Notes: generated by a model from the letters alone, not told the origin. Positions 4,486 to 54,381 are shown, counted from the first letter of the stretch. The stretch is DNA of 64,000 bases from Escherichia coli (GCF_044324875.1 NZ_CP172185.1); one strand, 5' to 3'. A program made the numbers and translations.

Positions 4486-5148
4486 TTAAATCGACGTTCT
4501 GCCAAACGCTCCCTGCCAGTCCTGCTCAAACTTCGCCACTGCGGCATCAACCGCCGGATAGCTAATCATCTGTTGTGCCACATCCAGCGGCAGAGTAATT
4601 GATTCACATCCTGCCAGTAAGCAGTCCAGAGCCTGACGCGGGGTTTTGAAACTCGCTGCCAGCACTTTCGCCTGCGGCGCATGCATTTTCAATAACTGGT
4701 GTAAGTCGGTCACAGTCTGAATACCGCAACCGCCCTGAGCATCAATACGGTTGACGTAAGGCGCAACATATTCCGCACCTGCCAGCGCCGACAGCAGCCC
4801 TTGTGCCGCGCCATATACCGCGGTTCCCAGCGTCGGAATCCCTTCCGCTTTTAACATCTTAATAGCTGCCAGCCCCTCAGCGGTCACAGGAACTTTCACC
4901 ACGATATCCGCAATAATAGAACGCAATTTACGTGCGTCATTCACCATCCCTTCAGCAGTGGTAGCCATTACCTGGGCAAACAGACGCCCCTGACCGCCCA
5001 TCGCTTCATGAAGTTCCGGAAGCACAACCTCCAGCGGTTTTTTACCCGCGGCGATAATGCTTGGGTTAGTGGTCACACCCGCCAGCGGAAAAATACGTGA
5101 CAGCGCCTTCACCGCAACAACGTCTGAAGTATCCAGATACAGTTCCAT
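4486..5148 (-). CDS. fsaA: Fructose-6-phosphate aldolase 1
   Basis: ORF 4486-5220; start set at the internal [10 protein letters not shown] (220 aa), a transaldolase-like TIM barrel. Confidence 0.88.
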
Positions 5149-5278
5149 AACCATCCTCAAAATGTACTTTTTGTCTGAATGTAGACTATCACGGGAAAAC
5201 TCTCTGAACAGTTGACGCACATCAATCTAACTTTCATTCGAAAGTATTTTAATGTTTGAACGAAACAGAGAGGCAACT

Positions 5279-6178
5279 ATGATTTTCAATATTCAGCGCT
5301 ACTCGACCCATGATGGCCCCGGTATCCGCACGGTCGTATTTCTTAAAGGCTGTTCGCTGGGCTGCCGCTGGTGTCAGAACCCGGAAAGCCGCGCCCGCAC
5401 GCAAGATCTGCTGTATGACGCACGACTGTGTCTGGAAGGCTGCGAGCTGTGCGCTAAGGCCGCGCCGGAAGTGATTGAGCGCGCGCTGAATGGTTTGCTT
5501 ATTCATCGGGAAAAGTTAACCCCGGAGCATTTTACGGCGCTAACCGACTGCTGCCCGACACAGGCGTTAACCGTGTGTGGTGAAGTGAAAAGCGTTGAGG
5601 AGATCATGGCGACCGTTTTGCGCGATAAACCGTTTTACGATCGCAGCGGCGGCGGCTTAACGCTTTCTGGCGGTGAACCGTTTATGCAGCCGGAAATGGC
5701 GACGGCGCTGCTGCAAGCCAGCCACGAGGCCGGCATTCATACTGCGGTAGAAACCTGTCTGCATGTGCCGTGGAAATATATCGCCCCTTCTCTGCCCTAT
5801 ATCGATCTGTTTCTTGCCGATTTAAAACACGTTGCCGACGCGCCGTTTAAACAGTGGACCGACGGTAACGCCGCCAGAGTGCTGGATAACCTGAAAAAAC
5901 TCGCCGCAGCGGGCAAAAAAATCATTATCCGCGTGCCGCTGATTCAGGGCTTTAATGCCGACGAAACCTCTGTAAAAGCCATTACCGATTTTGCCGCCGA
6001 CGAGCTGCACGTTGGCGAAATTCATTTCCTGCCCTACCACACGCTGGGCATCAACAAATATCACTTACTTAATCTGCCCTATGACGCCCCGGAAAAACCG
6101 CTTGATGCGCCAGAACTGCTCGACTTTGCCCAGCAGTATGCCTGCCAGAAAGGGTTAACCGCGACCTTACGAGGATAA
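5279..6178 (+). CDS. pflE: Glycyl-radical enzyme activating protein (radical SAM), PflE/YbiY
   Basis: CxxxCxxC radical-SAM motif ([13 protein letters not shown]) near the N-terminus; start set at MIFNIQRY; directly upstream of the glycyl-radical enzyme gene. Confidence 0.88.
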
Positions 6179-6183
6179 CAACC

Positions 6184-8616
6184 ATGACCACACTGAAACT
6201 GGACACGCTCAGCGACCGCATTAAAGCGCACAAAAATGCGCTGGTGCATATTGTGAAACCGCCGGTCTGTACCGAGCGCGCGCAGCACTATACTGAGATG
6301 TATCAACAACATCTCGATAAGCCGATCCCGGTACGTCGCGCGCTGGCGCTGGCGCATCACCTGGCGAATCGCACCATCTGGATCAAGCACGATGAGTTGA
6401 TCATTGGCAACCAGGCAAGCGAAGTTCGCGCCGCGCCGATCTTCCCGGAATATACCGTCTCCTGGATCGAAAAAGAGATTGATGATCTGGCGGATCGTCC
6501 GGGTGCTGGTTTTGCGGTGAGCGAAGAGAACAAACGTGTTCTGCATGAAGTGTGCCCTTGGTGGCGTGGTCAGACGGTACAGGATCGCTGCTACGGCATG
6601 TTTACCGATGAGCAAAAAGGTCTGCTGGCGACCGGCATCATTAAAGCGGAAGGCAATATGACTTCCGGCGATGCGCACCTGGCGGTGAATTTCCCGCTGC
6701 TGCTGGAAAAAGGGCTTGATGGTCTGCATGAGAAAGTGGCGGAACGTCGCTCGCGCATCAATCTGACGGTACTGGAAGATTTGCACGGCGAACAGTTCCT
6801 GAAAGCGATTGATATCGTGCTGGTGGCAGTCAGTGAACACATTGAACGTTTCGCTGCCCTGGCGCGTGAAATGGCAGCCACTGAAACCCGCGAAAGCCGT
6901 CGCGATGAACTGCGGGCGATAGCAGAAAACTGCGATCTTATCGCCCACCAGCCGCCGCAGACTTTCTGGCAGGCGCTGCAACTGTGTTACTTCATCCAGT
7001 TGATTTTGCAGATCGAATCCAACGGTCACTCAGTATCGTTTGGTCGTATGGACCAGTATCTCTACCCGTACTATCGACGCGACGTTGAACTGAACCAGAC
7101 GCTGGATCGCGAACACGCCATCGAGATGCTGCATAGCTGCTGGTTGAAACTGCTGGAAGTGAACAAAATCCGCTCCGGCTCACACTCAAAAGCCTCTGCG
7201 GGAAGTCCGCTGTATCAGAACGTCACCATTGGCGGACAAAATCTGGTTGATGGTCAACCAATGGACGCAGTGAATCCACTCTCTTACGCGATCCTTGAAT
7301 CCTGCGGTCGCCTGCGTTCCACTCAGCCTAACCTCAGCGTACGTTACCATGCGGGAATGAGTAACGATTTCCTCGACGCCTGCGTGCAGGTGATCCGCTG
7401 CGGCTTCGGGATGCCAGCGTTCAACAACGACGAAATTGTCATCCCGGAATTTATTAAACTCGGCATTGAACCGCAGGACGCTTACGACTATGCAGCGATT
7501 GGTTGTATCGAAACCGCCGTCGGTGGCAAATGGGGCTATCGCTGTACCGGCATGAGCTTTATCAACTTCGCCCGTGTGATGCTGGCGGCGCTGGAAGGCG
7601 GTCGTGATGCCACCAGCGGCAAAGTGTTCCTGCCACAAGAAAAAGCGTTGTCGGCAGGTAACTTCAACAACTTCGATGAAGTGATGGACGCGTGGGACAC
7701 GCAAATCCGTTACTACACCCGCAAATCAATCGAAATCGAATATGTCGTTGACACCATGCTGGAGGAGAACGTGCACGATATTCTCTGCTCGGCGCTGGTG
7801 GATGACTGTATTGAGCGAGCAAAAAGTATCAAGCAAGGCGGCGCGAAATATGACTGGGTTTCTGGCCTGCAGGTTGGCATTGCCAACCTCGGCAACAGCC
7901 TGGCGGCAGTGAAGAAACTGGTGTTTGAACAGGGCGCGATTGGTCAGCAACAACTGGCTGCCGCACTGGCGGATGACTTCGACGGCCTGACTCACGAGCA
8001 ACTGCGTCAGCGGCTGATTAACGGCGCGCCGAAGTACGGCAACGACGACGATACTGTCGATACGCTGCTGGCTCGCGCTTATCAGACCTATATCGACGAA
8101 CTGAAACAGTACCATAACCCGCGCTACGGTCGTGGTCCGGTTGGCGGCAATTATTACGCGGGTACGTCGTCTATCTCCGCTAACGTACCGTTTGGCGCGC
8201 AAACTATGGCAACGCCGGACGGGCGTAAAGCGCATACCCCGCTGGCAGAAGGCGCAAGCCCGGCTTCCGGTACTGATCATCTTGGCCCTACTGCGGTCAT
8301 TGGCTCGGTGGGTAAACTGCCTACGGCAGCGATTCTCGGCGGCGTGTTGCTCAACCAGAAACTGAATCCGGCAACGCTGGAGAACGAATCTGACAAGCAG
8401 AAACTGATGATCCTGCTACGCACCTTCTTTGAAGTGCATAAAGGCTGGCATATTCAATACAACATCGTTTCCCGCGAAACGCTGCTGGAAGCGAAAAAAC
8501 ATCCGGATCAGTACCGCGATCTGGTGGTGCGCGTAGCGGGTTATTCCGCCTTCTTCACCGCGCTCTCTCCAGACGCACAGGACGATATCATCGCCCGTAC
8601 TGAACATATGCTGTAA
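6184..8616 (+). CDS. pflF: Glycyl-radical enzyme (pyruvate formate-lyase-like) PflF/YbiW, substrate unknown
   Basis: 810-aa ORF with the C-terminal glycyl radical motif RVAGYSAFF; paired with its activase. Confidence 0.9.
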   Translation: MTTLKLDTLSDRIKAHKNALVHIVKPPVCTERAQHYTEMYQQHLDKPIPVRRALALAHHLANRTIWIKHDELIIGNQASEVRAAPIFPEYTVSWIEKEIDDLADRPGAGFAVSEENKRVLHEVCPWWRGQTVQDRCYGMFTDEQKGLLATGIIKAEGNMTSGDAHLAVNFPLLLEKGLDGLHEKVAERRSRINLTVLEDLHGEQFLKAIDIVLVAVSEHIERFAALAREMAATETRESRRDELRAIAENCDLIAHQPPQTFWQALQLCYFIQLILQIESNGHSVSFGRMDQYLYPYYRRDVELNQTLDREHAIEMLHSCWLKLLEVNKIRSGSHSKASAGSPLYQNVTIGGQNLVDGQPMDAVNPLSYAILESCGRLRSTQPNLSVRYHAGMSNDFLDACVQVIRCGFGMPAFNNDEIVIPEFIKLGIEPQDAYDYAAIGCIETAVGGKWGYRCTGMSFINFARVMLAALEGGRDATSGKVFLPQEKALSAGNFNNFDEVMDAWDTQIRYYTRKSIEIEYVVDTMLEENVHDILCSALVDDCIERAKSIKQGGAKYDWVSGLQVGIANLGNSLAAVKKLVFEQGAIGQQQLAAALADDFDGLTHEQLRQRLINGAPKYGNDDDTVDTLLARAYQTYIDELKQYHNPRYGRGPVGGNYYAGTSSISANVPFGAQTMATPDGRKAHTPLAEGASPASGTDHLGPTAVIGSVGKLPTAAILGGVLLNQKLNPATLENESDKQKLMILLRTFFEVHKGWHIQYNIVSRETLLEAKKHPDQYRDLVVRVAGYSAFFTALSPDAQDDIIARTEHML

Positions 8617-9728: not shown

Positions 9729-10994
9729 ATGGCTTCTACTTTTACCAGCGACACATTGCCTGCCGATCACAAAGCAGCTATCCGTCAGATGAAGCACGCG
9801 CTGCGGGCACAGCTTGGCGACGTCCAGCAGATCTTTAATCAGCTAAGCGATGACATTGCTACGCGAGTGGCTGAAATCAACGCACTCAAAGCACAGGGCG
9901 ATGCCGTCTGGCCGGTGCTGTCTTATGCCGATATCAAAGCAGGTCATGTTACTGCAGAGCAGCGCGAACAGATTAAACGTCGCGGTTGTGCGGTGATAAA
10001 AGGCCATTTCCCCCGCGAACAAGCGCTAGGCTGGGATCAGTCGATGCTGGACTATCTGGACCGCAACCGCTTTGACGAGGTCTACAAAGGCCCCGGCGAT
10101 AATTTCTTCGGGACGCTCAGCGCTTCACGTCCCGAGATTTACCCCATCTACTGGTCGCAGGCGCAAATGCAGGCCCGCCAGAGTGAAGAAATGGCGAATG
10201 TGCAGTCGTTTCTCAATCGTCTGTGGACATTTGAAAGTGATGGAAAGCAATGGTTTAACCCGGATGTGAGCGTCATCTACCCTGACCGTATCCGCCGCCG
10301 TCCGCCCGGAACGACCTCCAAAGGTCTTGGAGCGCATACCGACTCCGGGGCGCTGGAACGCTGGCTGCTTCCAGCGTATCAGCACGTTTTCGCCAACGTC
10401 TTTAATGGCAATCTGGCGAAATACGATCCCTGGCATGCGGCACATCGTACGGAAGTTGAAGAGTACACGGTGGACAACACCACCAAATGTTCCGTGTTTC
10501 GGACATTCCAGGGCTGGACAGCGCTCTCTGATATGCTGCCTGGTCAGGGGCTGCTGCACGTCGTGCCCATTCCTGAAGCCATGGCGTACGTACTGTTACG
10601 TCCGCTGCTTGATGATGTGCCGGAGGATGAACTGTGCGGCGTAGCGCCCGGAAGAGTATTGCCGGTATCAGAGCAATGGCATCCACTGTTGATTGAGGCG
10701 TTAACCAGCATTCCAAAACTCGAAGCCGGAGACTCCGTCTGGTGGCACTGCGACGTCATCCATTCCGTTGCCCCCGTTGAAAATCAACAGGGCTGGGGCA
10801 ACGTGATGTACATTCCTGCGGCACCGATGTGCGAGAAAAATCTTGCCTACGCGCACAAGGTGAAGGCCGCACTGGAAAAAGGCGCATCGCCGTGCGACTT
10901 CCCGCGCGAGGACTATGAAACAAACTGGGAAGGACGCTTTACGCTTGCCGACCTCAACATTCACGGTAAGCGAGCGTTGGGAATCGACAGCTGA
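9729..10994 (+). CDS. ybiU: DUF1479-family protein YbiU
   Basis: ORF 9723-10994; start set at MASTF to give 421 aa; synteny. Confidence 0.8.
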   Translation: MASTFTSDTLPADHKAAIRQMKHALRAQLGDVQQIFNQLSDDIATRVAEINALKAQGDAVWPVLSYADIKAGHVTAEQREQIKRRGCAVIKGHFPREQALGWDQSMLDYLDRNRFDEVYKGPGDNFFGTLSASRPEIYPIYWSQAQMQARQSEEMANVQSFLNRLWTFESDGKQWFNPDVSVIYPDRIRRRPPGTTSKGLGAHTDSGALERWLLPAYQHVFANVFNGNLAKYDPWHAAHRTEVEEYTVDNTTKCSVFRTFQGWTALSDMLPGQGLLHVVPIPEAMAYVLLRPLLDDVPEDELCGVAPGRVLPVSEQWHPLLIEALTSIPKLEAGDSVWWHCDVIHSVAPVENQQGWGNVMYIPAAPMCEKNLAYAHKVKAALEKGASPCDFPREDYETNWEGRFTLADLNIHGKRALGIDS

Positions 10995-12064
10995 GTGTCG
11001 TACAGCCCTTCCCGTTCCACGGCGGTGTTCCCTTTTCCTGGGCGAACCCGCCGCACTGACTCCCGCACCGCCAATCGTCCGTGCAGCAGCAGCGAGCCCA
11101 CCGGAGCATCCGGGCGAATCAGCCGCTGTTGCAACATTTGCACCGCTTCATTGCCTAGCTCATCGCATGGCACATGCACAGCCGTCAGGGGAACATCCTC
11201 GATTGCCGCAAGGTTAAAGCCGTCGATACTCATCACCGAGACATCCTGTGGTACGCGCAGACCACGACGATGTAGCGCATTTACCGTTCCCGCCGCCATA
11301 AAATCCCCGCCGACCAGAAACGCCGTCGGCAACGTCTTGCCATTGGCGGCATCCAGCCACGCTCCGACCTTTTCTTCCGCTTCTTTAGCGCTAAAACTGC
11401 TGATATTCAGCAAATGACGGTCATGGTGAAAGGCCAGATTATGCTGACGCCATGATTCTTTAATCCCTGCAAACCGCTGCTCCATAGTGTAGCGGCGCAG
11501 GCACATCACATTCATCACCTCCCGGTGACCCATTTCAAACAGATAGCGGGCGGCGAACGCGCCAATTAACCGATGGTCCGGCGCAATCGCCGGGAGGCGC
11601 ATTCGTTCATCACGGCAGTTGATCAGCACACAAGGCTTAGCGAGATCGGCGGCCAGATCATGGATGTGCGGATCGTCAATCCCCAGCAGGATCGCCGCCT
11701 GCGTATCTGCTTCATTCATCCGCGAGAGAAATAGCGCGGGATCGCTGTCAAACTCCTCCAGCGCGCAGTAACGCAGCCGCACTTCATGCGGCGATAACGC
11801 TTTGCTGATGCTCTGGATCACACGGTAATAAAAGATATCAGATCGTTGGTCAAAAGCGCGTTGCGGCGCGAAAATAATCAGGTTGTTCAGCAACATACGA
11901 CCTGCTGCCATGCCATCCATCACGCCCAACTCACGCGCGCAGGCCAGCACCTGTTCGCGAGCGCGTGCACTGGTATTCGCTTTGCCAGCCAGCACCCGCG
12001 AAACCGTACTCGGCGATAGCCCGGTACGTGCGGCGATATCGGCGATTTTCAGCTTCTTGTCCAT
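10961..12064 (-). CDS. LacI-family transcriptional regulator (accessory module)
   Basis: N-terminal HTH KIADIAARTGLSPSTVSRVL followed by a periplasmic-binding-protein-like sugar-binding fold; start set at MDKKLK inside the longer ORF 10961-12142. Confidence 0.8.
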   Translation of the reverse strand: MDKKLKIADIAARTGLSPSTVSRVLAGKANTSARAREQVLACARELGVMDGMAAGRMLLNNLIIFAPQRAFDQRSDIFYYRVIQSISKALSPHEVRLRYCALEEFDSDPALFLSRMNEADTQAAILLGIDDPHIHDLAADLAKPCVLINCRDERMRLPAIAPDHRLIGAFAARYLFEMGHREVMNVMCLRRYTMEQRFAGIKESWRQHNLAFHHDRHLLNISSFSAKEAEEKVGAWLDAANGKTLPTAFLVGGDFMAAGTVNALHRRGLRVPQDVSVMSIDGFNLAAIEDVPLTAVHVPCDELGNEAVQMLQQRLIRPDAPVGSLLLHGRLAVRESVRRVRPGKGNTAVEREGLYDTQLSIPNARLP

Positions 12065-12352
12065 TTTGTGATCTGCCTCTAATTCGGAAATGACAGAATT
12101 TTCATGAGCAAAAAAGCCCATTCTGTCTGGCATTAAATCCATTTCAGTAATGTATATCAGTCACTCATGGAAAAACGTGCACAAAACCCGCTTTCTTTCG
12201 CTTTTAGGGTCTCTTACTGTGAATTGGTAGAACAACTTCCATACAAAAATAATGGAAAAACGAACAATAAAGACTTTATTTATCAAAAAGTTAAAAGTGG
12301 TGTGACAACTCCATTCTGACGTTGCCGCACAAACCCTATACCATTCTGTGGA

Positions 12353-13660
12353 GTGCATATGAGTCAGGGTATCAATAACGATATGACTGCCAGTAAACCG
12401 CGCCATATCGTCAAAAATCTGCGTTGGTGGATACTGGTCCTTTTTTTGCTCGGTGTTACTGTCAACTACATCACGCGTAACTCGCTGGGTATTCTCGCCC
12501 CCGAACTGAAAAGCAACCTGGGGATTACCACCGAACAATATTCCTGGATTGTAGGTGCTTTCCAGCTCGCCTATACCCTATTCCAACCGTTGTGTGGATG
12601 GCTGATTGACGTCATTGGCCTCAAACTGGGCTTTATGATCTGCGCGGGACTGTGGGCGCTGGCCTGTCTGATGCATGCGGGGGCGGGAAACTGGGTACAT
12701 CTGGCGCTGTTGCGCTTCTTTATGGGCGGTGCGGAAGCCGCGGCAACCCCAGCAAACGCCAAAACCATCGGTGAATGGTTTCCAAAATCAGAACGCCCGA
12801 TCGCCGCAGGCTGGGCAGGCGTCGGTTTTTCCATCGGTGCCATGCTGGCCCCACCGATTATCTATTTTGCCCACGCTTCATTCGGCTGGCAGGGTGCATT
12901 TATGTTCACTGGCATCCTGGCGATGCTGTGGGTGGTGCTGTGGTGGGCGTTCTATCACAACCCGGATAAGCATCCTAACCTCAGCAAAGCCGAGCTGGAC
13001 TTTATCCGCCAGGATAACGAAGCGCCCCCTGTCAAGTTACCCTTTCTGACCGCACTGAAAACCGTAGGCAAAAATAAACGCTTTTACGGTATCGCTATCC
13101 CGGCCTTTATGGCAGAACCGGCGTGGGCGGTGATGAGTTTCTGGGTTCCGCTATACCTGTCCAAAACCTATGGCATGGACCTGAAGCAGATCGCATTATT
13201 CGCCTGGTTGCCGTTCCTCGCCGCTGATCTTGGCAGTATTGCCAGCGGCTATCTGACCAAACTTTACACCCGCCTGTTTGGGCTGAGTCGTGTGAACTCC
13301 GTTGTCGCATCATCGGTCAGTGGCGCATTCCTGATGGTTTCGCTGGCGGTGATGGCCTTTACCAATAACCCGTATATCGCCATCGTCCTTATTTCCATCG
13401 GCGGCTTCGGTCACCAGATCATCTCCTGCATGCTGAGCGCACTGGTGGTGGAATCCTTCGACAAAGGTCAGATGGCCACTGTTAACGGCATGCGCGGTTC
13501 TGCCGCGTGGATCGCAAGTTTCCTGTTCTCCCTGATTATCGGGGTTACCGCTGACAAAATCGGCTTTAACCCCCTGTTTATCGCCATGGGCTTCTTTGAC
13601 CTGATTGGTGCTTTCTTCCTGGTCACCTTTATTGCTGAACGTCGCGCAAAACGCGCCTGA
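12353..13660 (+). CDS. MFS transporter, anion:cation symporter (ExuT/DgoT-like) type
   Basis: 435-aa ORF with about 12 hydrophobic segments and MFS-type loop motifs; immediately upstream of a GH31 gene. Confidence 0.8.
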   Translation: MHMSQGINNDMTASKPRHIVKNLRWWILVLFLLGVTVNYITRNSLGILAPELKSNLGITTEQYSWIVGAFQLAYTLFQPLCGWLIDVIGLKLGFMICAGLWALACLMHAGAGNWVHLALLRFFMGGAEAAATPANAKTIGEWFPKSERPIAAGWAGVGFSIGAMLAPPIIYFAHASFGWQGAFMFTGILAMLWVVLWWAFYHNPDKHPNLSKAELDFIRQDNEAPPVKLPFLTALKTVGKNKRFYGIAIPAFMAEPAWAVMSFWVPLYLSKTYGMDLKQIALFAWLPFLAADLGSIASGYLTKLYTRLFGLSRVNSVVASSVSGAFLMVSLAVMAFTNNPYIAIVLISIGGFGHQIISCMLSALVVESFDKGQMATVNGMRGSAAWIASFLFSLIIGVTADKIGFNPLFIAMGFFDLIGAFFLVTFIAERRAKRA

Positions 13661-13662
13661 GA

Positions 13663-16038
13663 GTGGATGTAAACATGAAAACGCTGAAAAACTGGACCCT
13701 GCACAAACAGTCTGCCCACCACGTTGAACTGCTGGTCGATGGCCAGCATATCCTGTGCCTGTACGTGCTGGAAGAAAATCTGTTCCGCGTGCTGTTAAAA
13801 CGCAAAGGCGAGCTGGCGCTGGATCGCACCTGGAGCATTGCTCCGGCGCAGGATGTGCCATGGGAAGGGCGCAGCCGCGAAGATCTCAGCGGCTTTAGCC
13901 TGCCCGCGTGGACATTGATCCAGCACGACGACACCGTGGTTATCGCCACCGAGTCACTGCGTGCCACCGTTCACCAGCCGCTGTGGCTGGAGTGGCACTA
14001 TCGTAACAACGAAGGCGAATGGCTGCCGTTGGTGAATGACCGCCCGACCAGCGCTTATCTGCTGAATGCCCACGGCGACGGCGTGGCGCACTATCAGAGC
14101 CGTCGTAAAGATGAACGCTTTTATGGCCTCGGAGATAAAGCCGGCGACCTGCAACGCAACGGTAAACGTTACGAGATGCGTAACCTCGACGCGATGGGCT
14201 ACAACGCCGTTAGTACTGACCCGTTGTACAAACACATTCCATTCACCATCACCCGCCGCGATGACATTAGCTTCGGCCTGTTTTATGACAACCTCAGCAG
14301 CTGCTGGCTGGATCTGGGCAACGAGATCGACAACTACCACACCGCCTATCGCCGCTGGCAGGCGGAAGCGGGTGATATCGACTACTACCTGTTTACCGGC
14401 GAACGCGTACTTGATATCACCAAAGCCTTCGTACGCCTGACCGGCAAAACCCTGTTCGGACCGAAATGGAGCCTGGGCTACAGCGGTTCAACTATGCACT
14501 ACACCGATGCGCCGGACGCACAAAATCAGTTGATGAACTTTATCCGCCTGTGTGAAGAACATGCGATTCCCTGCGATTCGTTCCAGCTCTCTTCCGGTTA
14601 TACCTCAATTAACGGCAAGCGCTATGTGTTCAACTGGAATTACGACAAAGTGCCGCAGCCGAAAGTGATGAGCCAGGCATTTCACAATGCTGGTTTGCAC
14701 CTGGCCGCCAATATCAAGCCGTGCCTGTTGCAGGATCACCCACGCTATAACGAAGTGGCAGAAAGAGGACTGTTCATCCGTGATTCAGAAACAGATGAAC
14801 CAGAACGTTCCAGCTTCTGGGATGACGAAGGTTCTAACCTCGACTTTACTAATCCGCAGACCATCCAGTGGTGGCAGGAAGGCGTGACCACACAGCTTCT
14901 GGAGATGGGTATCGACTCCACCTGGAACGACAACAACGAATTCGAAGTATGGGACGGTGAAGCACGCTGTCACGGCTTTGGTCAGACGATCGCGATCAAA
15001 CATATTCGCCCGGTGATGCCACTGCTGATGATGCGAGCCTCGATGGAAGCCCAGCAACGTTTCGCTCCGGAAAAACGTCCGTACTTGATCTCCCGCTCCG
15101 GCTGCGCGGTAATGCAGCGCTATGTGCAGACCTGGAGCGGCGATAACCGCACTAGCTGGGACACTCTGCGCTACAACACCCGCATGGGTCTGGGGATGAG
15201 CCTCTCCGGGCTGTATAACCTCGGTCACGACGTCGGCGGTTTCTCCGGTGATAAGCCGGACCCGGAACTGTTTGTACGCTGGGTACAAAACGGCGTGATG
15301 CATCCGCGCTTTACGATTCACTCGTGGAACGATGACCATACCGTAAACGAACCGTGGATGTATCCGGGCGTCACTCCGGCGATCCGCAGCGCTATTGAGT
15401 TGCGCTATCGCCTGCTGCCCTACTTTTATACCCTGATGTGGCAGGCATACGCCGATGATGAACCAATGCTGCGTCCGACTTTCCTTGACCACGAGCACGA
15501 CGTTCAGACTTTTGAAGAGTGTGATGACTTCCTGCTTGGTCGCGATATTTTGGTTGCCAGCGTCGTAGAGCAAGGCGAGCGCCAGCGCCGTGTATGGCTG
15601 CCAGATAACGAAACTGGCTGGTACGATTTCTACAACGGCGAATGGTTCAGTGGCGGTCAGTGGATCACCCTCGACGCACCGCTGGAGAAACTGCCGCTGA
15701 TGGTGCGTGCCGGGGCTGGTCTACCGCTCAGCAAACGCATCACCTATGTGAGCGCAGAACAAGACGATACCCGCGAACTGAAACTGTTCCCGCTGAAAGG
15801 TGTGGGCACAACGTCCGGCCTGCTGTTTGAAGACGATGGCGAAAGCTGGGGCTACCAAACTGGTAATGCGCTTTGGGTGGAATGGGAAATGGTTTGCGAT
15901 GGGGCGACCATCAACCTGAAAGTCAACGCGCGCGGGGATTATCGACCTGCATGGAGTGCACTGAAAGTGTCATTACCAGTGGAAGAAAAACGCACGCTGC
16001 TGGTCAATGGTGTTGAAGGGAGTGAATGGATGCGTTAA
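13663..16038 (+). CDS. Glycoside hydrolase family 31 (alpha-glucosidase / alpha-xylosidase-like)
   Basis: 791-aa ORF with GH31-like catalytic motifs WNDNNEF and HDVGGFSG. Confidence 0.8.
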   Translation: MDVNMKTLKNWTLHKQSAHHVELLVDGQHILCLYVLEENLFRVLLKRKGELALDRTWSIAPAQDVPWEGRSREDLSGFSLPAWTLIQHDDTVVIATESLRATVHQPLWLEWHYRNNEGEWLPLVNDRPTSAYLLNAHGDGVAHYQSRRKDERFYGLGDKAGDLQRNGKRYEMRNLDAMGYNAVSTDPLYKHIPFTITRRDDISFGLFYDNLSSCWLDLGNEIDNYHTAYRRWQAEAGDIDYYLFTGERVLDITKAFVRLTGKTLFGPKWSLGYSGSTMHYTDAPDAQNQLMNFIRLCEEHAIPCDSFQLSSGYTSINGKRYVFNWNYDKVPQPKVMSQAFHNAGLHLAANIKPCLLQDHPRYNEVAERGLFIRDSETDEPERSSFWDDEGSNLDFTNPQTIQWWQEGVTTQLLEMGIDSTWNDNNEFEVWDGEARCHGFGQTIAIKHIRPVMPLLMMRASMEAQQRFAPEKRPYLISRSGCAVMQRYVQTWSGDNRTSWDTLRYNTRMGLGMSLSGLYNLGHDVGGFSGDKPDPELFVRWVQNGVMHPRFTIHSWNDDHTVNEPWMYPGVTPAIRSAIELRYRLLPYFYTLMWQAYADDEPMLRPTFLDHEHDVQTFEECDDFLLGRDILVASVVEQGERQRRVWLPDNETGWYDFYNGEWFSGGQWITLDAPLEKLPLMVRAGAGLPLSKRITYVSAEQDDTRELKLFPLKGVGTTSGLLFEDDGESWGYQTGNALWVEWEMVCDGATINLKVNARGDYRPAWSALKVSLPVEEKRTLLVNGVEGSEWMR

Positions 16039-16217
16039 ATCATTACCGGGGCCGGGAGGCGACTGCGCCTTACCCGGTCCAGCCATCGAATCCTTTACCT
16101 CAGTATTTCACGCTGCAGGAAGGCAGCAAACCTGTAAACCCCGGGAGCTTAAATAAGTAAGTGACCGGGGTGAACAGGTGAAGCCAATGCATCTGCCGCA
16201 TGAAAGACGGCGGGAAA

Positions 16218-17813
16218 TTAACCGTCGATCCCTTTACTACGCAGATAATCTTCGTAATTACCGCTAAAGTCGATCACGCGTTCCGGGGTGATTTCCAGAA
16301 TACGGGTCGCCAGGGAGCTTACGAACTCACGGTCGTGTGAAACAAAGATCAGCGTGCCCTGATACAGTTCCAGCGCCATGTTCAGCGACTCAATAGATTC
16401 CATATCCAGGTGGTTGGTCGGTTCGTCCATGATCAGAATGTTCGGCTTCTGCATCATTAATTTACCAAACAGCATCCGCCCTTTTTCTCCACCGGAAAGC
16501 ACTTTCGCTGGCTTTTTGATGTCGTCCTGGCTAAACAGCAAACGACCGAGAATGCTGCGTACCGCCTGCTCGTCATCGCCTTCCTGCTTCCACTGGCTCA
16601 TCCATTCGAACACGGTCAGATCATTTTCGAACTCATATTCATGGTCCTGGGCGTAGTAACCAATGCGTGCGTTTTCAGACCATTTTACGGTGCCGCTGTC
16701 CGGTTGCAGATCGCCCACCAGCGTTTTCAGCAGCGTTGATTTACCGACGCCGTTGGTACCCAGTACCGCCAGTTTTTCACCGACCTCCAGCAGCAGGTTG
16801 AGATTTTTAAACAGCGGACCGTTATCAAACCCTTTGGTCAGACCTTCCACTTCCAGCGCGTTACGGAACAGTTTCTTATCCTGTTCAAAACGGATGAACG
16901 GGTTCTGACGGCTGGAGGCTTTCACCTCTTCCAGTTTGATTTTATCAATCTGGCACGCGCGCGAAGTTGCCTGGCGAGATTTCGAGGCGTTGGCACTAAA
17001 GCGGCTAACGAAAGATTGCAGCTCAGCAATCTGCGCTTTCTTCTTGGCGTTATCAGCCAGCAGACGCTCACGCGCCTGGGTCGCCGCCGTCATGTACTCA
17101 TCGTAGTTACCTGGATAAACGCGCAGCTCGCCGTAATCCAGATCAGCCATGTGGGTACAAACCATGTTAAGGAAGTGACGGTCGTGCGAGATGATGATCA
17201 TGGTGCTGTCACGCTCGTTCAGCACCTGTTCCAGCCAACGAATGGTGTCGATGTCGAGGTTGTTGGTCGGTTCGTCGAGCAGGAGAATGTCCGGATCAGC
17301 AAACAGCGCCTGCGCCAGCAGCACACGCAGCTTCCAGCCAGGAGCAACTTCACTCATCGGGCCGTAGTGCTGTTCCACTGGAATTCCCACGCCAAGCAAC
17401 AGTTCACCGGCGCGAGCTTCCGCAGAGTAACCGTCCATTTCGCCGTATTTCACTTCCAGATCGGCCACTTTATAGCCGTCTTCTTCACTCATTTCCGGCA
17501 AAGCATAGATGCGGTCACGCTCCTGTTTCACTTCCCACAACTCTTTATGCCCCATGATCACCGTATCCAACACAGTGAACTCTTCAAAGGCAAACTGATC
17601 CTGACGCAGCTTACCAATGCGCTCGTTGGGATCGAGGGAAACGTTACCCAACGTCGGCTCTAAGTCGCCGCCGAGGATCTTCATAAAGGTGGATTTACCA
17701 CTACCGTTCGCGCCAATCAGGCCGTAACGGTTGCCGCCGCCAAATTTGACGGAAATGTTTTCAAACAACGGCTTACTGCCGAACTGCATGGTGACGTTAC
17801 TGGAAACTAACAC
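16218..17813 (-). CDS. ybiT: ABC-F family ATPase (two nucleotide-binding domains, no transmembrane domain)
   Basis: 531-aa ORF with two Walker A motifs ([18 protein letters not shown]) and two LSGG signatures. Confidence 0.9.
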
Positions 17814-21178: not shown

Positions 21179-22762
21179 ATGAATTTAACCCTCAAAGAAT
21201 CGCTTGTTACCCGTAGCCGGGTATTTAGCCCGTGGACTGCGTTCTACTTTTTACAGTCGCTATTAATTAACCTCGGCTTAGGTTATCCCTTCAGTTTGCT
21301 CTACACCGCTGCGTTTACGGCTATGTTGCTTTTGCTATGGCGAACATTGCCTCGCGTACAAAAAGTTCTGGTCGGTGTCAGTTCGCTGGTGGCGGCTTGT
21401 TATTTCCCTTTTGCTCAGGCCTACGGCGCGCCTAATTTCAATACATTGCTGGCATTGCACTCCACCAATATGGAAGAGTCGACCGAAATCCTGACGATTT
21501 TTCCGTGGTACAGCTACCTGGTCGGCTTATTTATTTTTGCGCTCGGCTTAATAGCAATCAGGCGAAAAAAAGAGAATGAAAAAGCGCGCTGGAATACCTT
21601 CGACAGCCTGTATCTGGTATTCAGTGTGGCGACATTTTTTGTTGCTCCCGTGCAAAACCTGGCCTGGGGCGGCGTATTTAAACTGAAAGATACTGGCTAT
21701 CCGGTATTTCGTTTTGCTAAGGATGTCATCGTCAATAATAACGAGGTGATTGAAGAGCAAGAACGGATGGCAAAACTTTCCGGAATGAAAGATACCTGGA
21801 CGGTCACTGCCGTTAAGCCGAAGTATCAGACCTATGTGGTGGTGATCGGTGAAAGCGCGCGTCGCGATGCCCTCGGTGCCTTTGGCGGTCACTGGGACAA
21901 TACCCCGTTTGCCAGCAGCGTTAACGGTTTGATATTTGCTGACTACATTGCCGCCAGTGGCTCCACGCAGAAATCGCTTGGCTTAACGCTCAATCGCGTT
22001 GTCGATGGCAAACCACAGTTTCAGGATAACTTTGTCACCCTGGCAAATCGCGCGGGCTTCCAGACCTGGTGGTTTTCCAACCAGGGCCAAATCGGCGAAT
22101 ACGATACCGCCATCGCCAGCATCGCCAAACGTGCAGATGAAGTGTACTTCCTGAAAGAAGGTAATTTTGAAGCAGATAAAAACACGAAAGACGAAGCGTT
22201 ACTGGATATGACCGCTCAAGTGCTGGCGCAAGAGCACTCGCAACCGCAGCTGATTGTTTTACATCTGATGGGCTCACATCCGCAGGCCTGCGACCGGACA
22301 CAAGGCAAATACGAAACCTTTGTGCAATCGAAAGAAACGTCGTGCTATCTCTATACCATGACGCAAACAGACGATTTACTGCGTAAGCTGTACGATCAGT
22401 TACGCAACAGCGGCAGTAGCTTCTCGCTGGTTTACTTTTCTGACCACGGTCTGGCCTTTAAAGAGCGTGGCAAAGACGTGCAATACCTTGCCCATGATGA
22501 TAAGTATCAGCAAAATTTCCAGGTGCCTTTTATGGTCATTTCCAGCGACGATAAAGCGCATCGGGTGATTAAAGCCCGCCGCTCAGCCAATGACTTCTTA
22601 GGTTTTTTCTCCCAGTGGACGGGAATTAAAGCGAAGGAAATTAACATCAAATACCCGTTTATGTCTGAGAAGAAAGCCGGGCCGATATACATCACCAACT
22701 TCCAGTTACAGAAGGTAGATTACAACCATCTCGGAACCGATATTTTCGACCCGAAACCTTAA
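21179..22762 (+). CDS. opgE: Phosphoethanolamine transferase for osmoregulated periplasmic glucans OpgE (YbiP)
   Basis: 527-aa ORF with N-terminal transmembrane segments and a sulfatase-like periplasmic domain. Confidence 0.88.
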   Translation: MNLTLKESLVTRSRVFSPWTAFYFLQSLLINLGLGYPFSLLYTAAFTAMLLLLWRTLPRVQKVLVGVSSLVAACYFPFAQAYGAPNFNTLLALHSTNMEESTEILTIFPWYSYLVGLFIFALGLIAIRRKKENEKARWNTFDSLYLVFSVATFFVAPVQNLAWGGVFKLKDTGYPVFRFAKDVIVNNNEVIEEQERMAKLSGMKDTWTVTAVKPKYQTYVVVIGESARRDALGAFGGHWDNTPFASSVNGLIFADYIAASGSTQKSLGLTLNRVVDGKPQFQDNFVTLANRAGFQTWWFSNQGQIGEYDTAIASIAKRADEVYFLKEGNFEADKNTKDEALLDMTAQVLAQEHSQPQLIVLHLMGSHPQACDRTQGKYETFVQSKETSCYLYTMTQTDDLLRKLYDQLRNSGSSFSLVYFSDHGLAFKERGKDVQYLAHDDKYQQNFQVPFMVISSDDKAHRVIKARRSANDFLGFFSQWTGIKAKEINIKYPFMSEKKAGPIYITNFQLQKVDYNHLGTDIFDPKP

Positions 22763-22769
22763 AAACAAA

Positions 22770-22797
22770 AATCCGCCCCGAGAGGCGGATTTTTTAT
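22770..22797. terminator. Bidirectional rho-independent terminator between opgE and ompX
   Basis: Hairpin ATCCGCC-CCGAGA-GGCGGAT followed by TTTTTT. Confidence 0.75.
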
Positions 22798-22810
22798 ATC
22801 ACCGAAGTGA

Positions 22811-23326
22811 TTAGAAGCGGTAACCAACACCGGCAATCCAGGTGCCTACGTCAACGCTACGAATACGGCTCTGCTCGTAAGAGAAGTCCAGAGCAACGTT
22901 TTCCATCGGGTTGAACTGCAGACCAGCACCGTAGGAGAAACCGTAGTCGCTGGTGTCGTGTTTGTAGGTCGGGTATTCAGTGGTCTGGAATTTACCATAA
23001 CCCACACCCACTACACCGTAGATGCTTGCCCAGTCGTTAATGCGGTAAGCCGGACCAGCAGTGATGCCGTAGTACTGGTTTTTGTTGTAGTCACCAGAGC
23101 TTGCAGTACGGCTTTTCTCGGTGTAAGTGAAAGAACCGATCACACCCAGCGGGCTGTTGTCTTCTTCATAGCGGTATTTCAGGTTGAAACCGCCCATTTT
23201 GTTCATTTGGCCCTGAGCGTCGCTCTGTGCGTAACCGCCAGTTACGGTAGAAGTTGCAGCTACGGAAGTACCTGCGGTGAAAGCCAGAACTGCGGCCAGT
23301 GCTGAAAGACATGCAATTTTTTTCAT
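22811..23326 (-). CDS. ompX: Outer membrane protein X (8-stranded beta-barrel)
   Basis: Start set at MKKIACLSALAAVLAFTAGTSVA signal peptide, ends with aromatic GVGYRF; 171 aa. Confidence 0.92.
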   Translation of the reverse strand: MKKIACLSALAAVLAFTAGTSVAATSTVTGGYAQSDAQGQMNKMGGFNLKYRYEEDNSPLGVIGSFTYTEKSRTASSGDYNKNQYYGITAGPAYRINDWASIYGVVGVGYGKFQTTEYPTYKHDTSDYGFSYGAGLQFNPMENVALDFSYEQSRIRSVDVGTWIAGVGYRF

Positions 23327-23678
23327 AACCACCTCAAATGTGATTCAAATAAGTCCTAAGTTTTAAATATATCAAAAATTAATGGGAAACTCTTCGCGAT
23401 TTGTGATGTCTAACGGGCCATTTCATGTAACAGAACGTTTCCATACACCGCTATCCATCTAAATTTAAATCACTTTTTCAGAGAACTGCGTAAGTATTAC
23501 GCATGTTTTCCCTGTCATTCATCCAGATTATTCCTAATCACCAGACTAATGATTCCATCAATCCTGGCGCATTTTAGTCAAAACGGGGGAAAATTTTTTC
23601 AACAAATGCTCAACCAGCATTGGGTATATCCAGTACACTCCACGCTTTACTTAGGTTTAGATATTTGTGGGAGAAAGG

Positions 23679-45989: not shown

Positions 45990-46811
45990 TTATAAAGAAA
46001 TGGCAGAATACTCTGTGTTTATCCATGAGTGTTCCTTTTCCCAGGTGAATATCCATTTACGTACTGGTCCGGCCATCACGTTAAGGTAATAACTGTCATA
46101 CCCGGCCATCGTCGCCACCGGGTGGTACCCTTTCGGCACCATGACCACGTCACGGTTATAGACCGCCATACATTCATCAAGTGTGCGGTCATCGGTATAC
46201 ACCCGCTGCATGCAGAACCCCTGTTCCGGGTTGAGGCGATGGTAATAGGTCTCCTCCAGATAGCTCTCCTGAGGCGGGTTATTCGTATCGTGTTTATGGC
46301 TCGGGTACGAACTGGTACAGCCTTCGTTGGTCCAGACCTCGACGACCAGCAGGCTGTCAGCGGGCTTGTCTTCCGGCAAAATATTATGCACATAACGCTG
46401 GTTGTGGCCGTTACCGCGCGCTTCGCCATCGATATCCTGAGGTGCAATCAACCGCGTCGGGTATGTCCCTTTTCCCGGAGCGGTACAGACTGCCAGCTCC
46501 AGTTTCGTCAGCGCCTTCACCTGCACTGCCTCCTGCGGGGTGACGTAAACCGCCCAAGGTTTGATGCGCTCGAACGGGCTCATCCGCTCCCCGATATCAG
46601 TAAACTGTGCAGAAGGAGTGCTGATGAAAGCGCGCCCGGCCACAAGCACCAGACAGCGCTCTTCACTGACAGCGGGCAGCGTCAGTTGCTGCCCTTCCTC
46701 AAGTTCATAGGCCTCAAAGCCAACATATCCCCATCCGGCGCTTTCCGGCGTGACAGACTGAGTCCGCCCCTCAGCGTTCGGCTGTTGCCAGCGTGATAAC
46801 AGACGTGACAT
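45990..46811 (-). CDS. iolB: 5-deoxy-glucuronate isomerase IolB
   Basis: 273-aa cupin-like ORF at the 3' end of the iol gene array. Confidence 0.75.
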   Translation of the reverse strand: MSRLLSRWQQPNAEGRTQSVTPESAGWGYVGFEAYELEEGQQLTLPAVSEERCLVLVAGRAFISTPSAQFTDIGERMSPFERIKPWAVYVTPQEAVQVKALTKLELAVCTAPGKGTYPTRLIAPQDIDGEARGNGHNQRYVHNILPEDKPADSLLVVEVWTNEGCTSSYPSHKHDTNNPPQESYLEETYYHRLNPEQGFCMQRVYTDDRTLDECMAVYNRDVVMVPKGYHPVATMAGYDSYYLNVMAGPVRKWIFTWEKEHSWINTEYSAISL

Positions 46812-46820
46812 GTCACCTCC

Positions 46821-47711
46821 TCAGATAAGCCCGGCGTCGCGCGCCAGGCGGCTCAGATTGTTATATCCCAGACGGGCGTAGGTCAGCGGATGGGCGATCG
46901 CCGGGTCCTGTTCAGCCTCCACCACCAGCCAACCGTGATAATCCTGCGTTTTCAGCAGTTGCATAATCGGCGGATAATCCACGCAGCCGTCACCCGGCAC
47001 GGTAAACACGCCGCTCAGCACCGCGTCGAGGAAGCTGGTTTTACGGTTTTTGACGTCCGCCAGCACGTCGGCGCGCACATCTTTGCAGTGAACATGATTG
47101 ATGCGCGATGCCCATCGCTGTGCCACCGCCAGCGGATCGGCCCCGGCAAAGGTCAGGTGGCCGGTATCCAGCAGTAAACCAACCTCCTCACCCGTGTGGA
47201 GCATCAGGTTGTCCACGTCTTGAGCGGACTCAATCACCGTGCCCATATGATGGTGGTAAGCAATCTGTACCCCCTGTTGCTGCGTATAGCGGGCGAACAC
47301 GGTGAGCTTCTCACCATACTCTTTCCAGCATTCCTGCGGGAAACGTGGGCGCAGGTGAACCGGCGTCTGCTGCTCACCGTGAATGCAGCCACTCACTTCC
47401 GCAAAAACCAGTACTTTTGCACCCAGCTCTCGCAGCAGCGTCAGATGCGACTGCACAGCAGCAATCTCGTCCTCTACACTGCGTTCCAACAGGCGGCCGG
47501 AATACCAGCCGGAGACCAACTGCAGGTCGTGGCGCTGCAAAATGGGCCCGAGCAGGCGCGCTTCTCGCGGGAATTTATTGCCCAGTTCGAAGCCAGCAAA
47601 ACCGGCCTCTTTCCCTTCACTCAGGCAGGTCTCCAGAGATGTCTCCGCGCCCAGTGAAGGCAGATCATCGTTCGTCCACGTCAGCGGGTTGATGCCCAGT
47701 TGTACACTCAT
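46821..47711 (-). CDS. iolE: Inosose dehydratase IolE (xylose-isomerase-like TIM barrel)
   Basis: Sugar-phosphate isomerase/epimerase fold; start set at MSVQLGINPLTW, just after the iolC stop. Confidence 0.75.
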   Translation of the reverse strand: MSVQLGINPLTWTNDDLPSLGAETSLETCLSEGKEAGFAGFELGNKFPREARLLGPILQRHDLQLVSGWYSGRLLERSVEDEIAAVQSHLTLLRELGAKVLVFAEVSGCIHGEQQTPVHLRPRFPQECWKEYGEKLTVFARYTQQQGVQIAYHHHMGTVIESAQDVDNLMLHTGEEVGLLLDTGHLTFAGADPLAVAQRWASRINHVHCKDVRADVLADVKNRKTSFLDAVLSGVFTVPGDGCVDYPPIMQLLKTQDYHGWLVVEAEQDPAIAHPLTYARLGYNNLSRLARDAGLI

Positions 47712-47722
47712 TGTCGTCTCCA

Positions 47723-49627: not shown

Positions 49628-49639
49628 GTTGAACCCTCT

Positions 49640-51810: not shown

Positions 51811-51821
51811 GAGAAACTCCG

Positions 51822-53369: not shown

Positions 53370-53420
53370 CAGCCTGCTCCTTATTTATGGGGAGCCGCCC
53401 GTACGGCGGCTCCAGACAAA

Positions 53421-54350: not shown

Positions 54351-54381
54351 TATTATGTCTCTCTGTGTAGGGTTGTTGTGT

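Follow-up and report, generated by a model that had tools for sequence, protein, structure and literature searches.

A GH31 enzyme named LfaA is listed as an α-glucosidase within a KdgK-UxaC-UxuB-LfaA-UxuA glucuronate locus in a published genomic reconstruction, whose authors speculate that glucuronides are hydrolyzed by LfaA in the cytoplasm (PMC5507952). Here we describe a relative of this enzyme in a stretch of 64,000 nucleotides from Escherichia coli (NZ_CP172185.1; this whole stretch is called the window below), where open reading frame (ORF) and Pfam analysis place 3 intact genes at 10961-16038, between ybiU and ybiT, encoding a LacI-family regulator, a major facilitator superfamily (MFS) transporter, and a GH31 glycosidase. 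Following names used in earlier comparative genomics for the gammaproteobacterial hexuronate regulon, we call these genes lfaR, lfaT, and lfaA; the name LfaA reportedly goes back to the comparative analysis of hexuronate regulons by Suvorova and coworkers in 2011 (J Bacteriol 193:3956). The cassette is an accessory catabolic module of a known and ordinary kind, and several described systems resemble it in part. Like the Pseudovibrio and Stappia loci considered below, which share its layout, the published LfaA locus sets a GH31 enzyme among glucuronate genes. The published name is purely a product of genomic inference, and the orthology of that protein (from HL-91) with the E. coli enzyme is suggested by the family, the layout, and the alphaproteobacterial loci. 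Unlike the published locus, the E. coli copy of lfaA lies apart from the uxu genes and is accompanied by its own LacI-type repressor.

The other systems share either the logic of the cassette or a single component. In the UidA/UidB/UidR system the logic is the same: a glucuronide is imported and hydrolyzed in the cytoplasm, and the glucuronate passes to UxaC, UxuB, and UxuA, under a dedicated repressor plus the hexuronate regulators. The proteins, however, are not homologous with those of the cassette, UidA being a GH2 enzyme acting on β-linkages, UidB a GPH-family carrier, and UidR a TetR-type repressor. The best precedent for a charged C6 substituent is YihQ with its transporter YihO, since YihQ is also a cytoplasmic, retaining GH31 α-glycosidase that acts on an imported anionic glycoside. 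Here the homology is distant and confined to the enzyme, with 24% identity and 1 of 5 signature residues kept; YihO belongs to a different transporter family from LfaT, and no sulfoglycolysis genes lie near the E. coli cassette. YicI/YicJ is likewise a 2-gene transporter plus GH31 operon in E. coli, but YicI is only 22% identical to LfaA, its xylose-selecting residues are absent from LfaA, and YicJ is of the GPH type. The closest solved structure is that of the endoplasmic reticulum glucosidase II α subunit (GANAB; PDB 5f0e), which has the same fold and catalytic machinery, with the nucleophile, the acid/base, and the −1 subsite Arg and His all aligning. At about 30% identity, GANAB differs in having WLDIEH and WNDMNE where LfaA has QLSSGY and WNDNNE, and it is a eukaryotic, lumenal enzyme with neutral substrates. 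Finally, ExuT is apparently of the same MFS subfamily as the lfaT product (43% identity over 414 residues, E = 3e-120), as a paralog and not an ortholog, the lfaT product being the one that is paired with a glycosidase.

Our favored reading, held with moderate confidence, is that the cassette probably serves to take up a glycoside with a glucuronic acid unit and to cleave it. The evidence for this substrate class comes mainly from relatives, for which gene neighbors were clustered across 80 related loci. At least 2 of UxuA, UxaC, and UxuB (or a short-chain dehydrogenase/reductase [SDR] mannonate oxidoreductase) are encoded within 8 kb in 21 of the 80, and the GH31 orthologs inside these uxu clusters are 60-77% identical to the E. 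coli enzyme. Such glucuronate clusters were found in Vibrio, Pasteurellaceae, Marinomonas, Celerinatantimonas, Pantoea, Erwinia, Aeromonas, Zophobihabitans, Pseudovibrio, and Stappia. By NCBIfam assignment the partners are a UxuR/ExuR-type GntR regulator, mannonate dehydratase, glucuronate isomerase, and fructuronate reductase or the SDR mannonate oxidoreductase, usually joined by 2-keto-3-deoxygluconate kinase (KdgK) and 2-keto-3-deoxy-6-phosphogluconate aldolase (Eda), with either this MFS or a tripartite ATP-independent periplasmic (TRAP) transporter. These enzymes make up the D-glucuronate branch of the Ashwell pathway. The nearest solved relatives of the TRAP binding protein are 4n8y, 4n91, and 4n15, which reportedly form the hexuronate-binding group in the work of Vetting and coworkers in 2015.

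A second line of evidence is regulatory. Using an 18-position ExuR/UxuR consensus, AAATTGGTATACCAATTT, and a threshold of at least 14 matching positions, 20 sites were found in the 27 kb lying upstream of the transporter gene versus 5 in 1.26 Mb elsewhere, an enrichment of about 180-fold. A box at this threshold is present in 26 of the 80 loci, and 35 of the 80 have either a box or at least 2 uxu enzyme genes. Boxes scoring 14-15/18 precede the transporter gene in many loci of the LacI type; genera with such boxes include Serratia, Hafnia, Pectobacterium, Yersinia, and Budvicia. In total, 14 loci of the LacI type have a box at the threshold but no adjacent uxu genes. In the window, box 1 (GAATTGGTAGAACAACTT) is the sole site in all 64 kb to reach the threshold, and it overlaps the −35 element (TTGGTA, 12224-12229) of a promoter-like sequence found by promoter scan, with a paired −10 element (AATAAT, 12248-12253). 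Box 2 (AAAGTGGTGTGACAACTC), downstream of this promoter-like site, lies in a block conserved among Enterobacteriaceae, (T/C)GGTGTGACAAC, and resembles the sites upstream of uxaC-exuT and exuR in K-12, AAAGTTGTATGACAAGTT and AAAGTGGTATAACAAATA, which themselves score 13-14/18. The orthogroup is thus associated genomically both with uxaC, uxuB, and uxuA and with ExuR/UxuR-type boxes. A preliminary description of this DNA had held that the substrate could not be told from sequence; the neighborhoods and boxes in relatives do point to a class, that of glucuronate-containing glycosides.

The transporter points the same way. Among solved structures it comes nearest to DgoT (137 bits), and the best-scoring model is TIGR00893 (268.6 bits, below the cutoff of 395); with the identity to ExuT this makes it a probable member of the anion:cation symporter group, the type proposed for it earlier. 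Of the 80 loci, 65 have the gene for this MFS next to that for the glycosidase and another 13 have a TRAP transporter instead, so that 78 of 80 have one or the other. The median gap between the MFS and hydrolase genes is 11 bp, which argues for a single operon. Because the transporter is always found with the glycosidase gene, a larger substrate than that of ExuT would be expected.

The membership of the hydrolase in GH31, also proposed in the preliminary description, is secure: PF01055 (291.5 bits), PF13802, PF21365, and PF17137 all score above their cutoffs, corresponding to the catalytic TIM barrel and the N-terminal, proximal, and distal β-sandwich domains, and both catalytic aspartates are in place. 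The nucleophile D419 (in WNDNNE) and the acid/base D490 (in WSGDNR) align with D416/D482 of YicI and D405/D472 of YihQ and are invariant in all orthologs aligned. Since the protein has no signal peptide, it should be cytoplasmic. Orthologs 60-90% identical occur in Enterobacterales, Pseudomonas, Aeromonas, Vibrio, Pasteurellaceae, Marinomonas, and a few Alphaproteobacteria, according to a species-level scan. Among solved structures the best matches are glucosidase II α (268 bits) and 6jr6 (263 bits), with YicI (124 bits) and YihQ (108 bits) well behind. All NCBIfam equivalogs fall below cutoff, including the MalA model (300.5 vs 800) and the α-xylosidase model NF007940 (225.6 vs 606). The motifs canonical for α-glucosidases (GAA, MGAM, GANAB, and MalA), W-x-D-[IL]-[DE] and WNDMNE, are missing: in β3 the sequence is QLSSGY instead of WLDIEH, so that the conserved Asp is replaced by Ser, and the Met after the nucleophile is replaced by Asn.

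We considered whether the Ser-for-Asp and Asn-for-Met replacements could be a sign of a uronate in the −1 subsite, and dropped the idea, the signature being clade-wide and occurring in unrelated contexts. When the 130 best-matching representatives of clusters formed at 50% identity were compared, most had the QLSSGY-type/WNDNNE signature, which persists to an identity of about 35%, and distant members of the clade lie beside a sugar ABC transporter (for neutral sugars) or beside AP_endonuc_2 together with DUF993. The closest solved structure to this clade scores only about 268 bits. More restricted are certain residues, R169, H543, and H606 among them, which are invariant in the orthogroup and rare in the wider clade; R169 is 3 residues before the N-domain loop Asp172, and position 606 presumably follows the Phe aligned with F649 of GAA. 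By analogy with solved GH31 enzymes, the loops bearing these residues tend to line the +1 subsite, which would weakly favor a uronate as the leaving-group sugar.

Several observations weigh against a glucuronate-containing glycoside as the substrate. No uxu gene adjoins the cassette in E. coli, and the candidate boxes there are imperfect, at 14/18 and 12/18. The active-site signature is not specific to uronates, because the larger GH31 clade has it beside neutral-sugar ABC transporters. The TRAP and MFS carriers resemble transporters of monosaccharide hexuronates, and import of free glucuronate could leave the hydrolase with no explained substrate. In addition, we found no biochemical characterization of the LfaA orthogroup in the literature, where we also looked for the genes that let Enterobacter asburiae use methylglucuronoxylose; PMC5507952 was the one relevant paper.

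From the same resemblance one might suppose that the transporter is a second importer of monosaccharide hexuronates, with the GH31 enzyme uncoupled from it or acting on some other cytoplasmic substrate. Its relation to ExuT, the likeness of the TRAP binding proteins to monosaccharide hexuronate binders, and the uxu clusters of Pantoea and Erwinia, in which the MFS protein is the only transporter, are all in keeping with this. We nevertheless regard it as improbable, given the near-universal pairing of transporter and hydrolase, the presence of ExuT in E. coli already, the awkwardness of a cytoplasmic glycosidase that would be substrate-less amid a monosaccharide pathway, and the superfluity of a separate repressor if the inducing sugar were free glucuronate, given that ExuR and UxuR respond to it anyway. 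Another possibility is that LfaA is a plain α-glucosidase for neutral α-glucosides resembling maltose, isomaltose, nigerose, or kojibiose, and that its association with uronate genes in other bacteria is incidental. The best solved relatives (glucosidase II and 6jr6, with MalA) are indeed α-glucosidases, the family is so labeled in the sources, and sugar ABC transporter genes adjoin those of distant clade members. Against this stand the pairing, in 78 of 80 loci, with a carrier of the anion type, be it an ExuT paralog or a TRAP system of the hexuronate kind, the recurrence of the uxu neighborhood in both Gammaproteobacteria and Alphaproteobacteria (Pseudovibrio and Stappia), the enrichment of ExuR/UxuR-type boxes upstream, the Ser in place of the conserved β3 Asp, and the failure of all α-glucosidase equivalog models by a wide margin; we judge the idea less probable still.

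The preliminary description had named α-xylosidases and sulfoquinovosidases as the comparators for the enzyme, and on signature residues and model scores both identities are rejected. A shared GH family, an anionic substrate as for YihQ, and the equivalent of YihQ Arg301 (R316) might seem to speak for the latter. This Arg, however, is the only one kept of the 5 sulfoquinovosidase signature residues (Q/K262, Q/E288, R301, W304, and Y508), and it is also present in glucosidase II; of the other 4, Q262 corresponds to T277, Q288 to a Ser (by strand anchoring), W304 to F319, and Y508 to F523. For a YicI-type α-xylosidase, the xylose-selecting C307/F308, a pair that keeps out a C6 group, are replaced by S307/G308, and the identity to YicI and the NF007940 score quoted above are both low. 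No sulfoglycolysis or xyloside genes are near in any related locus, and either identity must be considered very improbable.

Within the preferred reading, that of a glucuronate-containing glycoside, a more specific proposal is that LfaA is an α-D-glucuronidase, the carboxylate counterpart of the sulfoquinovosidase YihQ. We offer this tentatively, as a predicted activity that we think less likely than not. To our knowledge no α-D-glucuronidase is known in GH31, so LfaA would be the first, and we found no report of a GH31 α-glucuronidase in the literature. Candidate substrates are α-glucuronosyl-glycerol, derived from glucuronosyl-diacylglycerol, the phosphate-starvation lipid of plants, algae, and marine bacteria, and aldobiouronic acids (GlcA or 4-O-methyl-GlcA linked α-1,2 to xylose) from glucuronoxylan. 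The large Ser-β3/WNDNNE clade of GH31, which has no solved structure, may moreover gain in LfaA its first member to which a function can be assigned.

The regulator belongs with the LacI/GalR family, having the LacI helix-turn-helix domain (PF00356) and periplasmic-binding-protein-like domains (Peripla_BP_3, PF13377; Peripla_BP_1, PF00532) as well as a palindrome at a fixed position; all NCBIfam equivalogs are below cutoff. A scan of 56 LacI-type intergenic regions, ranging from E. coli to Pseudomonas, showed the palindrome ATGAAAAnnTTTTCAT exactly 26 nt upstream of the codon corresponding to Met20 of the regulator in 55 of them, and sites matching at least 12 of its 14 specified positions number 68 in 15.9 kb of intergenic sequence versus 7 in the 1.1 Mb that makes up the rest of the loci. 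Most regulator-bearing loci have a second copy at +101 to +104, about 77 bp beyond the first. In the window these copies are O1 (ATGACAGAATTTTCAT) and O2 (ATGGAAAAACGTGCAC); the O2 block is conserved in an alignment of Enterobacteriaceae intergenic regions, and a 20-nt direct repeat (D7) joins 12167-12186 to 12252-12271, where there is a third operator-like copy. It is likely, judging from this conservation, that ATGAAAAnnTTTTCAT is the operator of the LacI-type repressor, which agrees with the dedicated repressor of the preliminary description. The annotated start of the regulator varies in RefSeq, the product being given 386 aa in MEI003 but 367 aa in the genome of sequence type (ST) 648, and longer starts exist at 12121 and 12142. 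Because the operator spacing is fixed, we place the start at Met20 as the most likely one; for the transporter and the glycosidase, the most likely starts are likewise those given for the genes in Table 1 and not the ORF limits.

Taken together, these components would form a simple pathway. An ExuT-like MFS symporter would import an anionic, α-linked glycoside containing D-glucuronate, and a cytoplasmic retaining GH31 hydrolase would cleave it. The freed glucuronate would then enter the Ashwell (isomerase) pathway through UxaC, UxuB, UxuA, KdgK, and Eda, all encoded elsewhere in E. coli. Expression would be held down by the LacI-type repressor, presumably bound at the ATGAAAAnnTTTTCAT operators, and ExuR/UxuR would probably exert control as well, through putative binding at the 2 boxes over the transporter promoter.

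Table 1. Positions of the cassette genes, candidate regulatory sites, and strain-variable segment in the window
Feature	Position	Strand	Basis or remark
lfaR-like LacI-family repressor gene, 367 aa, MDKKLKIADIA start	10961..12064	-	Pfam, operator position
lfaT-like MFS transporter gene, 433 aa, ExuT paralog	12359..13660	+	Pfam MFS_1, ExuT identity
lfaA-like GH31 α-glycosidase gene, 787 aa	13675..16038	+	four GH31 Pfam domains
Regulator ORF	10961-12142	-	ORF call
Transporter ORF	12353-13660	+	ORF call
Glycosidase ORF	13663-16038	+	ORF call
Candidate operator O1	12090..12105	.	12/14 specified positions of ATGAAAAnnTTTTCAT
Candidate operator O2	12167..12182	.	10/14; 77 bp from O1
Third operator-like copy	12252-12267	.	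similarity to O2
ExuR/UxuR-type box 1	12221..12238	.	14/18 to AAATTGGTATACCAATTT
ExuR/UxuR-type box 2	12294..12311	.	12/18; downstream of promoter-like site
Segment without K-12 counterpart	10988..16224	.	blastn, junction alignments, C-terminal comparison across genera
Spacer between glycosidase gene and converging ybiT, REP-like G+C-rich palindromic sequence	16039..16217	.	sequence, alignment to K-12 REP spacer

The 3 genes are flanked on the left by those for YbiW, YbiV, and YbiU (Gig2-like/DUF1479) and on the right by those for YbiT (an ABC-F ATPase), LdtB, and YbiR, as assigned with Pfam and NCBIfam. ORFs, Pfam, and RefSeq annotation, which gives the identical 3 genes in near-identical strains, agree with the gene content first described for this segment. 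The same description had the cassette interrupting the K-12 gene order, and comparison with K-12 (MC4100 and MG1655) upholds this: there ybiT comes straight after ybiU. In a local blastn comparison with MG1655 (800-880 kb), collinearity ends at 10987 and resumes at 16225, so that 5237 bp in the window stand against a 251-bp spacer containing a repetitive extragenic palindromic (REP) sequence in K-12 (857552-857802). The left junction is within the last few codons of ybiU (GIDS* in the window vs GMDV* in K-12) and the right one within the last 2 or 3 codons of ybiT (GIDG* vs GIE*); the YbiU and YbiT C-termini of both alleles are inside the range of variation among other genera. The last 34 nt of the regulator gene (10961-10994) overlap the 3′ end of the converging ybiU. 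Kluyvera and Pseudocitrobacter share the 34-nt overlap with E. coli, but in Enterobacter and Citrobacter it is only 4 nt.

The variability among strains that had been suggested is confirmed. When the transporter-glycosidase part was compared with 5426 complete E. coli genomes, it was matched in 577 (575 of them at 80% coverage or more), always on the chromosome and in identity tiers near 99.9%, 99.6%, 99.2%, and 98.2%. Named carriers, besides ST405-like strains, include an O102:H6 strain, one labeled ST69, and one labeled ST648; by multilocus sequence type, these belong to phylogroups D and F. The indel is real, but it is not the 2-state polymorphism that had been supposed, as the locus exists in at least 3 states in E. 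coli: with the module, as in K-12 (ybiU, REP spacer, ybiT), and as in B2 strains (CFT073 and UTI89), where neither the module nor ybiU is present. In CFT073 (NZ_CP051263.1, 881865-894329; locus 5146-7753), ybiV is followed by 199 bp and then ybiT. Beside ybiT, the B2 type retains some 160 bp of REP spacer that is 91% identical to the K-12-type sequence, and the YbiT protein of CFT073 is that of K-12, the right junction being of the K-12 type. Because this spacer and YbiT protein are retained, the B2 allele looks like the product of a second deletion, in which ybiU was lost from an allele already lacking the module. The 3′ end of ybiU is unmatched in 1320 of the 5426 genomes, a count that fits the B2 type.

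A separate observation on the K-12-type allele is that in the O91 strain RM7190 the REP spacer contains a transposase gene of IS621 (IS110 family; locus 4557-5537). IS621 targets REP elements, and this insertion fits that preference.

The position of the cassette in other genera bears on its age. Pseudocitrobacter, Kluyvera, several Enterobacter species, Citrobacter, Pluralibacter, Silvania, and related lineages have the 3 genes in the same ybiU-ybiT interval, and in Kosakonia the cassette follows ybiU at a locus whose examined part stops short of ybiT. In all, it adjoins ybiT in at least 10 enterobacterial genera besides E. coli. Its neighbor on one side is different in Enterobacter sp. Ag1, Atlantibacter, Dryocola, Cedecea, and Mangrovibacter, where it comes directly after iaaA-moeA-moeB, and the fsaA-ybiY-ybiW-ybiV-ybiU block is absent from these 5 loci. 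In 4 of the 5 (Enterobacter sp., Dryocola, Cedecea, and Mangrovibacter), ybiT is on the far side, so that the cassette lies between moeB and ybiT; Atlantibacter has other genes there. Since these loci have ybiT but not the ybiU block, the link of the cassette to ybiT looks older than its link to ybiU. The genes der and xseA/guaBA flank the cassette in Serratia and Rahnella. We examined such conserved neighbors (in Serratia, Rahnella, Atlantibacter, and others) as possible pathway partners and rejected them as housekeeping genes: xseA, guaBA, der, moeAB, iaaA, and gsiA.

The G+C content at third codon positions is 0.63-0.66 in the module and 0.54-0.63 in neighboring genes. Nucleotide identity between E. 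coli and the genera named is 72-84% for the module and 72-87% for its flanks, and the best value for any module gene in the sampled genera is 84.4%. Within the species, with the window allele compared with that of one ST648 genome, nucleotide differences amount to 2.6% in lfaT (30 synonymous and 4 nonsynonymous), 1.4% in lfaA (24 and 9), 1.7% in ybiT (26 and 1), and 2.1% in ldtB (18 and 1). The regulator gene is intact in both genomes, the intergenic region has a 1-bp indel, and the spacer between lfaA and ybiT shows 4 differences in 179 nt. This pattern indicates that the module has long been resident under purifying selection. We found no integrase, transposase, or tRNA gene between ybiU and ybiT or at the junctions in the window, and no meaningful flanking direct repeats at the module junctions. 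A recent insertion or mobile island is thus ruled out, by the lack of mobility genes, tRNA, and repeats, by the native composition, and by the flank-like divergence. Because the module occupies the same site in many genera and has diverged as its flanks have, its presence is most likely ancestral, with the K-12-type allele having arisen by deletion. Under this scheme, the cassette would have stood beside ybiT in ancestral Enterobacteriaceae and been kept in some E. coli lineages (ST69, ST405-like, and ST648), though probably lost from most; its deletion would have given the K-12-type allele, and the B2 allele would then have been shortened further by the loss of ybiU. The old polymorphism without mobility genes envisaged in the preliminary description is in line with all of this.

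The ancestral reading has its own difficulties. No Escherichia or Salmonella representative genome is among the best 80 species-level glycosidase matches, an indirect observation because the matches are more numerous than these 80; if no such representatives carry the module, retention in E. coli would require several independent losses. Moreover, the regulator (80.6% nucleotide identity), intergenic region (75.5%), and transporter (84.4%) are closest to Kluyvera, with Pseudocitrobacter also near, whereas ybiU, ybiV, and ybiW are closest to Citrobacter, which suggests at least one old recombination event. These points would be accommodated if the E. coli ancestor lacked the module and lineages of the D and F groups regained it from another enterobacterium, by homologous recombination through the ybiU and ybiT flanks. 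The 34-nt overlap with ybiU shared with Kluyvera and Pseudocitrobacter would agree with such an import, as would the fact that divergence from K-12 starts within the last codons of both flanking genes, where recombination ends might be expected. On the other hand, the ceiling of 84.4% nucleotide identity between the module genes and those of the sampled genera is in the same range as for the flanks; the composition of the module is native; and the divergence between the window and ST648 in the module matches that of ybiT and ldtB, so that any import must predate the split of those lineages. We consider import unlikely, though it deserves more weight than any of the rival substrate assignments above.

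Farther along the window, collinearity with both K-12 and the near-identical MEI003 stops at 26570, in the glnH-glnP spacer, 51 bp past the glnH stop codon. The remainder (26570-64000) is an island with a tyrosine integrase gene (26736-27929), a tetratricopeptide repeat protein gene, insertion sequence remnants (ISAs1 and IS66), a sitA remnant, and, at approximately 45990-60246, a complete myo-inositol catabolic cluster comprising iolB, iolE, a kinase/aldolase fusion, an ABC transporter, iolG, iolD, mmsA, and an RpiR regulator. The glnHPQ operon appears to be split here. Only 5 of the 5426 complete E. coli genomes have at least 80% of 26400-51000 in one place, and in strain 135 the island is at another site, beside ycjD/sapF. 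In MEI003 (NZ_CP071263.1, locus 21837-23849), an annotated type III effector gene lies between rhlE and dinG, where K-12 has ybiA; that region is not in the window, as the island begins before it.

In summary, the ybiU-ybiT locus would represent stepwise gene loss at a REP-rich spacer, with 3 states in E. coli. If the proposed function is correct, about one-tenth of sequenced E. coli would be able to use a class of glucuronate-containing α-glycosides closed to K-12, to B2 strains, and to most commensal lineages. The resulting difference in niche would be modest though definite, with the extraintestinal lineages ST69, ST405, and ST648 among the carriers. Proteobacteria associated with plants, the gut, and the sea widely carry the orthogroup, and its assignment would fill a gap in GH31 and may add a new specificity to the family.

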